The notes beneath the pieces were generated by a model. That model saw only the letters and a program-made list of their open reading frames with translations. It had not been told where the DNA came from and ran no database searches. A stretch of 64,000 nucleotides of DNA, from NCBI GenBank assembly GCA_054600435.1, contig BAAIJX010000017.1, forward strand, positions 310,001 through 374,000, in the 5' to 3' direction. The number at the start of each line of letters is the position of its first letter. Positions within the stretch are counted from its first letter, which is position 1. The DNA comes from Neophaeotheca triangularis (taxonomy: Eukaryota). This document shows, piece by piece, positions 132-61,893 of this stretch. A program made the position numbers and the translations under genes.

Positions 132-3100
132 TCAAATACTAGCCCTCCTAGGCGCCATAGTGCGCCTCAAATTCCGCTTCTCCTCGCCCTCCTCCACAAC
201 AGGCAAAACTCCCTTCTCCCGCAACTCTCCCAAATACTTCTTCCCAAACTGATACCCGACCTGGTAAATCTCATCGAACTTGCTAAACTCCAACGTCCCG
301 TACCCTTCCACCGGGGGCCGCATATACCTCACCCCGGGCATGCTTTTCGCACGCTCCAGAGCATCCACCGAGCTCACGTAGGCCAGCCTAGCTTGGATCT
401 CGGAAAGCGTGGGCGGGTTTGGGTGCGAGGAAAAGGGGTTCCAGCGGTTGAGGCTGGCCCAGAAGCCCGAGAGTGAGTCGCCATAGTGTTGGGCTTGGTC
501 GTCGTCAAGAGCACCAACGTCGATGGCGAAGATGACGTCGGCGCCGAGGGATTTCATGTGCGAGACGGTCAGGTTGTCAACGTAGCCGCCGTCGAGCAGC
601 ATGTTGCCCTCGTCACACATAGGCGGAGTCAGGCCTGCGAGCGACATGGAAGCGCGTACGTAGCGCCAAACGTAGCCCGAGGTGTGGATCTCGGAGCGTG
701 ATTTGGAGATGTTGGTTGTATTGCAGTAGTATTCGAGCCAGAAGTCTTCGATCTGGCTGTCGCCGAAGGTCTTGAAGATACCACGGTTGAATTCGTGCCC
801 CGTCGTGTAGGAGGCGCTCGGGTACGTGACGTCGAGCGCGAAGCGCCACATACTGCCCATGCGGCCGGAGAATTTCTTCGCGCGGCCGTACATTGGGACT
901 ACGTCGGCATCCCAGGCGTAGAGGGCGCCGATGAAGGCGCCGATGGAGGTGCCGCCTACGATGTCGATGGGCAGGCCTGCTTCTTCGAGGGCGCGGATGA
1001 CACCGACATGCGCGATACCTCGGGCACCGCCTCCACCGAGGACGAGACCTACGCTTCGACCGCAGAGACGGCGGGCTAGGCGGTGGAAGTCGCCTTTGAA
1101 AGGCGTCTCGGCGCTGTAGAGGGGAGTCTGACGCACGCGCTTCGAGGTATACTTTTGAATCTCGGCCTGGAGCACTTGCACACGTTGCTTGAGAGCGTTT
1201 CCAAATCGTTTGATTTGTGGGTGAACTGGCTCTGCCGTCGAGTGGAAAGACATTTGTACGTGGTGGTGGCCGCCATTGATCCAGGTGCGATTACGCAGCC
1301 AGCGGCGTGTGAGGCCAGGAGGGCAATAACGCTCGCTGTGGAGGAGTACGAGTTCTTTTCGTGCCGTTGTCTTTGTGGTCAGCAAGAAGCGCTCATATTC
1401 GCCAATGCTAGGTGAGCCCTCTGCAAGGCCGACGAGGTAGATGCAGTCGGCTTGGCTGATGCAAGTCTGGGTCCAGGGTGATTTGACGCTGGTATCGGCG
1501 ATGTAGAGCACCAGTCCGTACTTCTCTTCAAGGTCCGCGAGGTACTGCGAAAGCTTGAGCTTGCCCATGCGACTAAATGCGTGCCGGCCCAGGTGATTCA
1601 GGATGGATGCTTGATTGAGAGTGGTAACTCCATTAGCTGTGCCGATCTGAGTTAATGCCGTTTGCAACCTGTTGCCGAATTCAACGACCGGAACTCCAGC
1701 TGTACAAGGTACGATTGCCACTGTCCGAAGGTTGACCGTAGAAGTAGCCATCGATCGCGATACCGACATCTTCGCTTCAGTGCTAGGCTCCGTCATCGGG
1801 TCTTCGATCAACGCTCGCATACGAGAAGCGATTATCTTCGAAACCTTGATAGTGATACCTGGATGCTCCTGTGCGAGACTGTTGAAAAGTGTCTTGGGAA
1901 ATTTGGCTAGCTCCGTATCCCGTATAGCATGCAACGTTCCGGGCCTTGGTGACTCTGTAAGCACCTCCAACTCGCCAACACTCTCACCCTGTCCGTACTC
2001 CCCGATGACCTTCATCTTGCCATCTTCACTCTCTTGAATGGCACGTAGGCGACCATTGAGAACGATGTAGATGGCGTCGCTTTCGTCTCGCTGGTTGAAG
2101 ATGACCTGCCCAGCGTTGACTTGAACCCACTCAAGCGCAAAGTCGATGTGCAGGATCAACCGTGGCAGCAAACTCGTCAATCGCTTCGCCATGGTCAACA
2201 GCACAATAGGGTATTTCTCCACAATCTTCTCAATCGAGTTGCGCGGAAGGAAGCCAACGTAGACATCGGTCTTGGCTGTAACGTCGATGAAAGACCTGTA
2301 CGAGGAGACAGTACCCAGGTACCCAGCTAGGCCTCCAGGCTTGGTGAGGAAGAGGCTCTTGTGCCCCTTTTTCTTGCGATCGCCGGCCTTTGCACTTGAA
2401 CGAGCAGACATGTTCGAATCGTATCGTCTGAGTGGGCCTCCCAGCAGCTCGCTAGCTTCGACGTGGTCGCCACCAGGGTTCGTACCTAGAACATTATTAC
2501 TGTTCTCACCCTCATCAACGGGCACACTGACATCCAGGAAACCGTCTATCACGTAGTACAGCCCTGGGTTCCGTTCGCCCTGTTCTACCAGCACCGCACC
2601 TTTGGGGAAGTGTACGATTTCGACTTCTTCCATCAAATCTTCAAGGGCATTGGCTGAGCCACCTAGGCTGAAACCGGACGTGGATGCGATTGACTCTGTG
2701 TCGTTGTCGCCAGATCCCTCATAAGGGTCCATGAAGCCGAAAGCGTTGTTGAAAATGGCAGTCTGTCTCCTCGAGTCAAACGACACCAATCGGGGCGATT
2801 GCGCCACCGACTCCGATTTTCGTATCATGCCCTCTTTCTGATTGCTCAGTCCAATTGCCTTGGCCATGCATTCCATGATGGACTCTCGGAAAAGTACGTC
2901 CTCGTCGATAGATTCTTGCCGATGCATTTGCGCTCTTGGGTTCGTCGAGGCATTGAACGGATCTCTATTCTTCTGATGTAGTGGAGTCGCTATTAAGCCG
3001 TTCCCCGGTACTTTTGGCGCTTGATACGGTTGCGAGAAGGATTGCCTAGATCCCTCGGTGCGACCGTGATTCCGCGCAGCGTGAATGTTGGTCAGCAGAT

Positions 3101-57071: not shown

Positions 57072-58205
57072 CTACGCGCTACTCGCTTCGGCTTCAGTAG
57101 CCGTACCACTCTCGCTAGTGTCAGGCCCTGCACCGGCATCCGCCGTCTTCTTCGCTTCTTCGGCTTTCTTCTTGGCCTGTAGCTGCCATGCTGGGATGGC
57201 AGCCTTGTTGCCTAGAATCTTGTTGTAAGGGCTGGCCGAGGAAGAACGGTCTGGCAAGCCAGTCGTCGCAGCTGGCTTCTCACTTTCTTCAGTCGTGCCG
57301 TTCGTGGCGCCAACACCGTTCGTGCCGTTCGTCATTGGAGTGCTTTCCGGAGCTGGCGCTGGAGTCGGAGCAGAGGCAGCGGTAGCGGTGCCACTAGACG
57401 GTGTGTAGGTTGTCGGTTGCTGCGAAAGGTACGACGGAGTGGCTCTCTGTTGGGGCGCAGGACCAGCAGACATGCGGTTGCCCACCAACGTCTTGAGACT
57501 CTTCATCTCCGTCGCCAGATCCCTCAACCTCTCGTCTGTGCCCTCCCTCTCCTTCTCAAGAGCCTTCGGTATCTGCTCCCTAATGTCTCCCAGTTCTCGC
57601 GCCATCCTCCTGCTATCAGCCTCGCGGTTTTCGTTGGCCTCCCTCGTGATACCAATGACAGATTCAACTTCACCCAGCGCCTTGTCCAGCCGCTCAGTGC
57701 GCGACTTCTCCGAGTCCTTCAGCTCCTGGGTGTCCGTTGCCAATTGATCCAACAGAGCAAACGCCTTGTCGAAACTCTCATCTACACTAGCCTTGTCTTG
57801 TTCCAGCTGCGGCGGTGTAGGTGGAGCTATCAAGGGATAAACGTAGCGTTTCGCCGTCCAGTAAACGGCATACCCGAAGCCTCCCATGACTGTAGCCGCG
57901 ATGAACCAATCCCTCCAATCTCGTCGCGGCATTTCGGGTGGCGGTTGATTCCATTGTTGATATTGCTGGTACTGTCCGTACTGTTGCTGCTGTGGTGCCG
58001 GTCTGTACGGCTGGGTGTATTGTGCCGTAGGCTGTTGTTGGGGTGGTGGAGGTGCTTGGCCGACTCTGGCGAAGGCGGCATCGATTTCCTCTTGGGTAAG
58101 ATTCTTTGACTTGAGGAAGGCGACTTTCTGGTCCACTGCCGCCGAAGAGACCGAGGGGTCGTTCAGGAAGGTGATGGCACCCTCGACCAGGTCCTCTCGG
58201 ACCAT
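57072..58205 (-). CDS. PEX14: Peroxisomal docking protein Pex14
   Basis: REDLV..A..FL.DPSV....K..FL.SK.LT.EEI, RDWRDWFI..TM segment, coiled coil, AAIPAWQL. Confidence 0.95.
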   Translation of the reverse strand: MVREDLVEGAITFLNDPSVSSAAVDQKVAFLKSKNLTQEEIDAAFARVGQAPPPPQQQPTAQYTQPYRPAPQQQQYGQYQQYQQWNQPPPEMPRRDWRDWFIAATVMGGFGYAVYWTAKRYVYPLIAPPTPPQLEQDKASVDESFDKAFALLDQLATDTQELKDSEKSRTERLDKALGEVESVIGITREANENREADSRRMARELGDIREQIPKALEKEREGTDERLRDLATEMKSLKTLVGNRMSAGPAPQQRATPSYLSQQPTTYTPSSGTATAASAPTPAPAPESTPMTNGTNGVGATNGTTEESEKPAATTGLPDRSSSASPYNKILGNKAAIPAWQLQAKKKAEEAKKTADAGAGPDTSESGTATEAEASSA

Positions 58206-58398: not shown

Positions 58399-58481
58399 CT
58401 AAGCTGTCAACTTTCCGTCTCACGTGCGCCTGCCTGAGTGAGGCAAAAGCGGGAGTGTCCGTCGCAATGGAAGCTTGGTGT

Positions 58482-59232
58482 GACGGTCACCCAAGCATAC
58501 CCAGCGACGGATTTCTGTCCTAACGCCCCGCTAAAACTTCTACCTATTCTTTCCCTCCCTTCCTAGATAACGATGTTTTAATACGACGGCAACCTTAAGA
58601 TGCGACGGGGCCTTATAATGCGACGGGGCCTCATAATGCGACGGGGCCTCATAATACGACGGGGCAAGATGCGACGGGGCAAGATACGACGGGGCAAGAT
58701 ACGACGGGGCAAGATGCGACGGGGCAAGATGCGATAGGGCTTCATAATGCGACGGGGCCTTATAATGCGATAGGGCCTCATAATACGACGGGGCAAGATG
58801 CGACGGGGCAAGGTACGACGGGGCAAGTTGCGACGGGGCAAGATACGACGGAGTAAGATGCGACGGGGCAAGATGCGACGGGGCCTCATAATGCGACGGG
58901 GCCTCATAATGCGACGGGGCCTCATAATGCGACGGGGCCTCATAATGCGACGGGGCCTTATAATGCGACGGGGCCAGATGCGACGGGGCCTTATAATGCG
59001 ACGGGGCCTCATAATGTGACAGGGCCTTATAATGCAACGGGGCAAGATGCGACGAGGCCTCATAATGCGATAGGGCCTTATAATGCGATAGGGCCTCATA
59101 ATGCGACGGGGCAAGATACGACGTATATAGCGAGGTACATATAATTATCTTAAGACTAGGAAAGTGAAAGGTAAAAGTTCAAGTAGGGCGTTGGGACAGA
59201 AATCCGTCGCTGGGTATGCTTGGGTGACCGTC
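58482..59232. mobile_element. Non-autonomous TIR element (MITE/foldback-like), 751 bp
   Basis: 47-bp TIRs at 58482-58528 and 59186-59232 (1 mismatch), flanked by GTGT at 58478-58481 and 59233-59236. Confidence 0.85.
58600..59123 (+). repeat. Minisatellite of about 31 units: ATGCGACGGGGC followed by CTCATA (18 bp) or AAG (15 bp)
   Basis: Units counted directly; forms the interior of the TIR element. Confidence 0.95.
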
Positions 59233-59448
59233 GTGTTCCCCGTCGCTAGGGCTTCTCCGCAGTGTTTATCAACACGCGCTGGCCAATTCAGATTGCAACA
59301 CCATCACCGCCAACTCAAGTCGCGCCGCGCTCTCCAATCGTTACATACAGTCGCAACATACCGCGCGCAACACTCTCTCCAAGCATATCTACCACTGACT
59401 GTACTTGCGGCTAAACACATCCCCTTCATCGCGACTTCTGCGCGCGGC

Positions 59449-61893
59449 ATGGCGCACAAACGCAGCAATAGCATAGGGCCGCAGGCAGGGGGTGTTGACG
59501 CGGGCTTGTTCTCCGTCCGGCGTCCTAGGGAGGTGAGTCGCGAGAGACTCCCACAGTCTCAAGGAGTGAAGCTCACAAATGATGTACAGACTCTGGGCGC
59601 AATCAGCAGCAATGTCTCCGCGATTCCCATGCCAGCTTCCGCGATGAAGCGTTCCACCTCTGCCTCCAACTTTCAGCAGCAAGCACCTTATACAGCCAAC
59701 CAAGCGCGCTCCACGTCCGGATCTCGCATGTCTCTTGCGCCTGGGCGTCCCTCGCAGCCAGTGTTCCAGCGATCATCATCTGGGGAGAACCTGGCGGGCA
59801 TGGGCTTCTCCACAGTGCAGCGACCGAGTACGCAGAACTTCCTGGCCAGCACTGGTGGTCGCAAGAGCTATGCACCTGTCACAAGCACACCGGCAAACCC
59901 CATTCAGCTGCAAGAGAGCACACAGCGGAGGAGCAGTGTTTACTCAGCGCGACCCTCTGCAGGATTTGGGCCAATGGGCCACCAATCCTTCTTTGCAACA
60001 GCACCACCTCAGACTGGAATGCCCACAGATTCACGACGTCTGCGAGATCCCGCTACGCGAGCGCAAATGGGCCAGGAGCTGTCGGAGTACCTTGCAATGC
60101 GCAATTTCGAAATGGAGATGAAGCATACCCTTACGAACAAGACCATGAGCTCGCCGACCCAGAAGGACTTCAACCTGATGTTCCAGTTCCTCTACCACCG
60201 TATCGATCCGTCCTATCGATTTCAGAAGAACATCGACGCCGAGGTTCCTCCACTTCTCAAGCAGTTGCGATACCCTTTCGAGAAGAACATCTCGAAATCG
60301 CAGTTGGCTGCAGTCGGTGGGAACAACTGGTCGACGTTTCTCGGTTTGCTGCACTGGATGATGCAGTTGTCGAAAATGATGGAGCAATACTCGACAGGAG
60401 TATACGATGATGCTTGCATAGAAGCCGGCTACGATGTGAGCGGGGATAGGATTACGTTCCAGTTCTTGTCGGATGCCTACAAGGAGTGGCTGTCCATTGA
60501 GGATGACGATGATGACGAAGAAGAGGCGAACCGGAGAATACAGCCTCATGTCGATGCCATGGCCTCCAAATTCGAGCAGGCTAACCAAGCGAATCTCGAG
60601 CAAGTCCGCCAGCTCGAGGAGGAAAACAAAGCCTTGCAAGAGCAAATCGAAGAGCTCTCAAAATCCGCCCCGAAGCTCGCAAAGTTGGACGAACAGATCA
60701 AAATATTGGAAGAGGACCGGGTAAAGTTTGAGAACTACAATGCTTCCATGGACGCCAAGGTGGAGAAGTACGCAAACCGCGCCCACCTCCTGCAACAAGA
60801 GATCGAAAAGTGCGAGCAGGAAGTCCGCGATGCCGAGGATGAGCGTAACGATTACCAACAAAAGGTCGACGACCAGGGACTCAGCGTGCAGGACATCGAC
60901 CGCATGAACAACGAGCGAGAACGCTTGCAAAAAGGTGTCGAGACCACAAGCATACGGCTCGAAGAATCTCGAGACAAAGTCTCCAAGAAGGAATCCGAGA
61001 CTGGCGGTAAACTGGACGAGCTCGAAACCGCAGTCCAACGGTACAATGGTCTGGGATACCAAATCGGCATCATCCCATCCACAGCCCCCAACGCCCACAA
61101 CTACGACCACGAACTCCGCCTCACCGTCAACTCCGGCCCAGACTTCAGCACTTCGCAACTGGCGCACCAATCCTCCCAACGCCTCGAAGCAGACCGCCTC
61201 CTCGCGGACTCCCAGAACGGCTATCAGCCGCAACACCTCCTCGCTTGCGACCTGAAGACCGCGAAAAAGGCACTCCAAGATTTACGTAAAGAAATCGCCG
61301 AACGCCGCAACACGGCGTGGGAGGAGGACATGGCCAAGACAGACATGCTTGAGAAGACAAAAGAGGCTCTCGAGGACAAGTACGCCGAGGTCGAGACGCT
61401 GGGGCATCGCGTCCGCAGCGGGCAGGAGGAGTTTGAGAAAACGCGCGAGATTGCGCAGGCCCAGAACATGGCCAGCGATGCGCAGATTGAGCGTATGGAG
61501 AAGGAGCTCAGTCGGATGCGTGGCGGGCTGTTGGAGAGCGTGCAATTGATGGAGCAGAGGGAGATGAGCACGAATCTGGAGTACGTCTTGCCCTTGATTC
61601 CCTACGATGCGTTCCATTCGAAGACGGTGATTTGCTGACTTTTTTTTTCTTCTCACGTTTTTAGGTACGAGCAACTCACGCTGCGCTCGTCGTCGCTGCG
61701 CGAGGAATTGCACACGGAGCTCGAGCGCATGCTCAACGACATTATCAAGTTCAAGATCCACATCCAGCAGAGCTTGGAGGGGTACGAGGAATTTGTCGCG
61801 CAGGAGGTGGATAGGGAGTGTGAGGAGCAGCAGCTCGCTGAGGGCAAGGCGCAGGATGATGAGGCCGTGTTTGGGGATGCTGGGGAAGAGTGA
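59449..61893 (+). CDS. NDC80: Kinetochore protein Ndc80/Hec1 (introns 59533-59589 and 61581-61664)
   Basis: [13 protein letters not shown] after splicing; CH domain [43 protein letters not shown]; long coiled coil. Confidence 0.95.

Follow-up and report, generated by a model that had tools for sequence, protein, structure and literature searches.

The stretch of DNA analyzed here (the window; 64,000 nucleotides of a Neophaeotheca triangularis contig) contains two housekeeping genes with a compact divergent promoter, PEX14 on the minus strand (57072..58205; PF04695, E 4.8e-16) and NDC80 on the plus strand (main open frame 59449..61638; PF03801, E 8.1e-56). An element of 751 bp lies between them (58482-59232), with GTGT on each side (58478-58481 and 59233-59236). 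The letters and coordinates (58478..59236) and both flanking genes are as an earlier note on this DNA had given them. Its estimate that the insertion makes up about 60% of a 1.24-kb interval also holds: 1243 bases separate the two start codons, and the element with both copies of GTGT accounts for 759 of them (61%).

The element is bounded by inverted termini (TIRs) of 47 bp, the left on the plus strand (58482..58528) and the right on the minus strand (59186..59232, ending ...CCGTC-3'). The two arms are perfectly complementary over 39 bp, carry a single mismatch at position 40, and match again to position 47, as had been claimed. The weaker inward similarity that the same note reported is present as 85% complementarity out to 75 bp (58482-58556 against 59158-59232). 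The first 21 bases of the element occur twice in the window and were never found in 100 shuffles (mean 0.00). Inside the TIRs lie a left subterminal segment (58529..58579, plus strand), a minisatellite of 32 units in a single orientation (58580..59117, plus strand), and a right subterminal segment (59118..59185, minus strand). The units are 15, 18, or 19 bp long (mostly 18 + 15 bp, with one of 17 bp) and have a ATGCGACGGG core, in line with the earlier description of the element as minisatellite filled. When the 15- and 18-bp units were compared with their commonest form, 27 of the 30 differences were C>T or G>A, a RIP-like pattern. No transposase was found inside the 751 bp, again as claimed; the long frames there are low-complexity read-throughs of the repeat. 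Strong folding of the element (z -6.2) was set aside as a separate feature, being only the TIR stem.

Sequencing runs that reach the left flank provided the empty site that the earlier note had proposed to look for. Of the four such runs, X1 and X2 contain the element (this DNA may come from either), and X7 has no coverage of the site. The remaining run, X3, is from another sample of the same organism; it matches up to 58481 and picks up directly at 59237, which is an empty site with a single GTGT. The element is missing, that is, from one of the three runs covering the site. Because the empty site has a single GTGT, the target duplication is 4 bp long and the terminal G and C are the element's own. 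A 2-bp GT duplication, which the sequence alone would permit, is excluded by this allele. A hidden 6-bp duplication (a C-NNNN-G target with ACGG ends) contradicts the empty allele and fits only two of the six family-1 copies described below. The X3 flank differs from this genome at 10 of 1482 letters, and since the flanks of the two alleles differ at these letters only, the insertion is young. These data confirm a real, recent, non-autonomous transposon insertion. Another insertion is polymorphic as well: run X1, a metagenome in which strains may be mixed, has a TIR flank whose site is empty in this genome.

Searching the genome with the TIR, another check put forward in the earlier note, returned 12 matches that pair into six elements (family 1), and all six have 4-bp duplications (GTGT, CTCG, GGGA, CTTA, CTAG, and CTAG). 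The claimed duplication length is thus borne out both by the empty allele and by every paired copy. The idea that GTGT is a special target did not survive, as the other copies duplicate CTCG, GGGA, CTTA, or CTAG. All 12 ends read GACGG..CCGTC, and the first 35 bases are identical in all 12. Three of the six copies are array-filled mini-elements (one enlarged to 22 kb), and the other three represent a 5.6-kb element (one enlarged to 25 kb). A cargo-carrying giant transposon was considered for the enlarged copies and rejected, as they are a mini-element and a 5.6-kb element with nested LTR-type insertions. These family-1 copies (L016-L018 and L019-L021) served as landing pads for LTR-type elements, and the outer nested insertion in C4 is bounded by TG..CA and flanked by a 4-bp duplication, GTAC. 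Two smaller family-1-like sequences were also seen. One is a 98-bp element consisting of little beyond two TIRs (L108:437-534; G000:C5:333336-333433); its duplication admits three readings, namely 3 bp, 4 bp with an additional G, and 5 bp with one mismatch. The other is a single end starting GACTG (L121:5998; G000:C6:182997, minus strand) with no partner within 26 kb around it.

The long, transposase-encoding copy that the earlier note had suggested seeking is the 5.6-kb element, although all three copies are RIP-dead. With stops read as X, these copies match PF24764 (rva_4) at E values of 2e-9 and 1.4e-9 and, weakly, PF00665; no other transposase family was found in the 12 frames scanned. The copies are 90 to 93% identical to one another, are all riddled with RIP, and have TIRs of about 40 bp; between copies C32 and C26, 381 of 387 substitutions are transitions, and TpA/ApT is about 2.0. 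The transposase has 37% identity to an intact protein, and through it to an extensive fungal protein family, many members of which carry Clr5 (PF14420); 512 representatives were obtained at E 1e-30. The D, D, and E columns are shared with the intact fungal proteins, with the E reading K in one RIP copy, and the predicted model of one relative, P0002 (pLDDT 87.9), matches TnsB and retroviral integrases. The PDB sequence search gave no match under E 0.3, and no solved IS3EU enzyme was among the PDB sequences searched. At the N terminus, the RIP-damaged region of the C32 copy has no Pfam match to Clr5; the sole support for a Clr5-like region is a tblastn match to part of the N terminus of a relative. 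A second open reading frame (ORF2) persists as a remnant alignable to the undamaged ORF2 of L025, a metagenome relative (E 2e-9, 24% over 203 aa); ORF2 has no protein family match, and the Atlas search gave no usable one. No longer, fused forms of the transposase were found at 927 to 2645 aa, which is weak evidence. A possible third ORF remnant, convergent and without a Pfam match, lies toward the distal end of the 5.6-kb copy (L013:about 2090-2630, plus strand).

How, then, is the mini-element related to the 5.6-kb element? Over its last 108 bases, including the right subterminal segment, the mini-element is identical to the transposase-proximal (5') end of the parent at 92 of 108 positions. 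The left end, over its first 98 bases, matches the element's own right end at 78/100, better than it matches either end of the parent (70-73/98 and 66/99), and the left subterminal segment follows the same pattern. We infer that the mini-element ends stem either from a head-to-head duplication of one parental end or from a parent subfamily not seen here. Because both arms of the mini-element share a base at TIR position 36 that the parent lacks, the true parent may be such an unseen subfamily. The minisatellite array is missing from the 5.6-kb parent. The mini-element has most traits of a MITE: it is short, bounded by TIRs, devoid of a transposase, and shares its ends with a coding element. 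A high copy number is not among them, with three array-bearing copies of family 1 in the assembly as a lower bound. Taken together, these data make it very probable that the 751-bp element is MITE-like and non-autonomous and derives from an IS3EU-related DNA transposon of 5.6 kb.

Transposase matches in the genome led to three further GAC-ended families (2, 3, and 4). Family 2 (GACGG ends, 5.66 kb, 79% to family 1) also includes two mini-elements and one split copy, and four of four duplications are 4 bp long (CTAG, CTAG, GTGG, and ATAC). The two ends of the split copy (L152:1507 and L147:1609) lie on contigs C43 and C74 and were paired by inference, with ATAC on both; this suggests that the two contigs are neighbors across a pile of nested repeats. 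Family 4 has GACTG ends and a 4-bp duplication, TTGG, in its one scored copy. That family includes a 26-kb element (G000:C8:126422-152859; L164, L135, L134, and L144) in which long GTTGTTCTAAC-type repeats occupy the subterminal regions and a 5.9-kb inverted duplication is among the nested insertions. Family 3 has GACCG ends, with a 5-bp duplication (CTGTT) at one copy; its mini-element has one decayed end, and the duplication there is unreadable. Of the 14 two-ended copies in all, 11 have duplications of 4 bp, 1 has a duplication of 5 bp, and the remaining 2 are unreadable. Seven of the eleven 4-bp duplications are nonpalindromic, and the other four are the palindrome CTAG, which is no proof alone.

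Minisatellites recur in these sister families. Two family-2 mini-elements of ∼1.15 kb (L149:1505-2668 and L150:414-1565) contain two inverted arrays with a ATGCGACG core around an AT-rich center, and in the family-3 mini-element (L154:395-1600; G000:C58) a related array runs past the decayed end. In family 1, the motif GCGACGG occurs both in the array and at TIR position 23. The notion that the array is a family-specific copy of this TIR motif was weakened, as the family-2 TIRs lack the motif although a related array is present in the mini-elements of that family. The minisatellite would have expanded by tandem amplification within the mini-element and might supply protein-binding sites; we regard this as doubtful, and it is the weakest step of the mechanism proposed below. 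Because related arrays accompany different TIRs in families 2 and 3, a binding role of the array is a guess.

Relatives of the transposase were also found outside this genome, at 80 metagenome loci and 4 loci of the genome collection. Among the 56 loci of at least 2500 bases, 14 have an inverted repeat, 3 of which are internal arrays without defined ends. Six distinct loci end in TAC, three with a clean 6-bp duplication and three with no clean one. Two distinct loci (L066/L069 and L067) have GACGG ends with duplications of 5 bp; a reading of 3 bp, with the terminus longer by one base, fits equally well. Locus L028 gives an ambiguous picture. Several other loci are worth recording. A related transposon with GGCGG..CCGCC ends and no duplication (L068:57-4462) falls outside the GAC clade on a long branch, and a G-start terminus may have arisen twice. 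Two TAC-ended relatives (L060:4581-11183 and L072) have TIRs of over 1 kb built of tandem subterminal repeats. Three metagenome-assembled genomes of prokaryotes contain PF24764 transposases of eukaryotic type (L104-L107), probably on misbinned eukaryotic contigs. In viral contigs, the TIR was found zero times, and the transposase protein search there gave 0 of 23 candidates.

A careful tree comprised 48 rows (1 row left out for coverage) and placed all seven GAC rows in one clade of 23 rows with support of 98/96, the ends being known for 7 of these 23 rows. A quick tree of 101 rows recovered the same GAC clade with support of 99; of its 136 starting rows, 32 were dropped for coverage and 3 as duplicates. 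In both, TAC/6-bp loci stand in for the Repbase IS3EU and Styx transposases, and RIP bias may draw the rows of this genome together. The best trees nest the GAC clade among the TAC/6-bp elements (supports 91/89 and 89/93, unstarred). An AU test on 28 of the 48 rows did not reject a tree that holds the six TAC rows together, apart from the GAC rows and the outgroup (p-AU 0.248). Nesting inside the TAC/6-bp elements is suggested by the best trees but not proven. Members of the GAC clade retain 31 to 48% identity to their neighbors despite RIP damage.

The earlier note had assigned the element to a poorly described group of DNA transposons that fits no common superfamily. The non-autonomous, poorly described part of this claim is supported, but the element is not an unplaced family, since its transposase, related to IS3EU/GingerRoot and Styx, names the group. 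The sequence comparisons support an aberrant lineage of that superfamily, with placement resting on the Pfam family, the shared kinds of relatives, and the TAC/6-bp stand-in loci. The likeness to IS3EU/GingerRoot includes an integrase-type DDE transposase, extra ORFs, a duplication without fixed sequence, and TIRs longer than 30 bp, and end bases 2 to 5 (ACGG) match the fungal TAYGG signature. According to PMC10045372 and PMC12730594, IS3EU has TA..TA ends and usually 6-bp duplications; the ends are described as "always TA..TA," whereas they are GAC..GTC here, with G instead of T as first base and a duplication of 4 or 5 bp. Rust-fungus IS3EU families have TAYGG..CCRTA ends and 6-bp duplications, and 15 of 15 IS3EU rows listed from Table S1 begin with TAYGG, about 12 further IS3EU rows being in that table (PMC12730594). 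GingerRoot is reported to make 6- to 8-bp duplications (PMC6839031), and its ends are rarely TG..CA. The lineage works like IS3EU but departs from it in two diagnostic features and is not filed here as a plain member.

Styx/REP9 of Zymoseptoria, compared here by description, is a close parallel. According to PMC8232023 and PMC10853768, it is IS3EU-like and has several ORFs, RIP-silenced copies, and polymorphic insertions, with dead copies moved in trans (PMC10853768). Two of its listed BLAST relatives, KAE9972207.1 and KAE8378784.1, were also returned by the profile search here. Unlike the 5.6-kb element, Styx is 7.9 kb long, with four genes including DUF3716, a 6-bp duplication, and a listed TIR beginning with ACGG (PMC8232023, PMC10853768). 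No description of GAC-ended IS3EU with 4- to 5-bp duplications was found in the literature searched, which lies outside Repbase and the figure TIR alignments (PMC8232023 Fig. 3b/S3 and PMC12730594 Fig. 1), and the portions available of PMC5751038, PMC4522978, and PMC13004909 contain nothing on this lineage.

Could the element instead belong to another superfamily that makes 4-bp duplications and has merely borrowed similar ends? Sola, Chapaev, and Kolobok make 4-bp duplications, with TTAA as the target of Kolobok, as also of piggyBac. Such lengths are also described for Ginger1, Ginger2 (4 to 5 bp), piggyBac, and IS481EU (PMC10045372). Ginger1 and Ginger2 further resemble the element in their integrase-like transposase, but they have TG..CA ends and form a lineage separate from IS3EU; IS481EU, also integrase type, is known from parabasalids only, with TNT..AYA ends, a single ORF, and duplications of 15 and 25 bp as well (PMC10045372). 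The family-1 ends are not TG..CA, TNT..AYA, or CC..GG, ORF2 departs from a single-ORF plan, and none of the eleven 4-base duplications is TTAA. The sole coding elements with these ends carry PF24764, with no other transposase family in 12 frames, and we give this alternative hardly any weight.

A nearer alternative is that the GAC-ended elements form a separate lineage, sister to IS3EU and deserving a name of its own as IS481EU does. Both IS3EU diagnostics (termini and duplication length) fail here, the seven GAC rows share one supported clade, and the tree grouping the six TAC rows apart was not rejected. Against these points, the clade sits amid TAC/6-bp elements in the best trees, the termini depart from TAYGG solely in their first base, and the clade is known by its ends in 7 of 23 rows. 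Superfamilies are usually far less similar than the 31 to 48% identity seen here. We consider a separate lineage unlikely. In IS481EU, the duplication length has shifted to 4 bp on at least two occasions, which provides a precedent for such a change (PMC10045372). Less probable still than a separate lineage is the view of the insertion as a regulatory element that has been retained in the PEX14/NDC80 promoter. The insertion does lengthen the start-to-start interval from 488 to 1243 bases, with start codons 272 (PEX14) and 212 (NDC80) bases away, but its absence from one of three covering runs and the near-identical flanks mark it as a young polymorphism. The reading we prefer is that of an aberrant lineage within the IS3EU/GingerRoot superfamily.

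For this lineage, we propose a transposase supplied in trans, with a putative N-terminal DNA-binding region and an integrase-type DDE core. It would recognize the GACGGTCACCCAAG... ends and join them to the target with a 4-base stagger and little sequence preference, after which host repair would duplicate GTGT. Movement would be cut-and-paste, with mobilization in trans as argued for Styx (PMC10853768). The joined strand would end in C, versus A in IS3EU and retroviral integrases. Retroviral ends give A at the joined strand. Both ends of the mini-element may descend from one parental end, and RIP would have killed the parents and spared the terminal 35 bases. In the assembly, all nine transposase matches are broken by many stops and no intact gene was found, so the link of the element to its mover rests on shared termini; the transposase of the 5.6-kb element probably moved this copy. 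Because the parent copies in the assembly are RIP-dead, the insertion would predate their inactivation or have arisen in another lineage.

These results reveal no new mechanism class, and their value lies in the lineage rather than in the single copy. GAC-ended elements form at least four families in one 25-Mb genome, with relatives in metagenomes, and annotation by TA ends and 6-bp duplications would miss or misfile them. At the PEX14/NDC80 locus itself, presence and absence of the insertion form a clean polymorphism within the compact promoter that the two divergent housekeeping genes share. We hold at roughly even chances the broader proposal that an undescribed ascomycete lineage related to IS3EU changed both features of strand transfer: a 3' C would replace the near-universal A, and a stagger of 4 or 5 bases would vary between sister families in one genome, and a related ATGCGACG minisatellite, present in the non-autonomous partners of three families whose TIRs differ, may aid their mobilization. 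A terminal base and a stagger that change among close relatives provide a handle on end choice by integrase-type transposases. If the proposal is true, these families would be a natural series for testing the determinants of end recognition and stagger in an unstudied group of enzymes.
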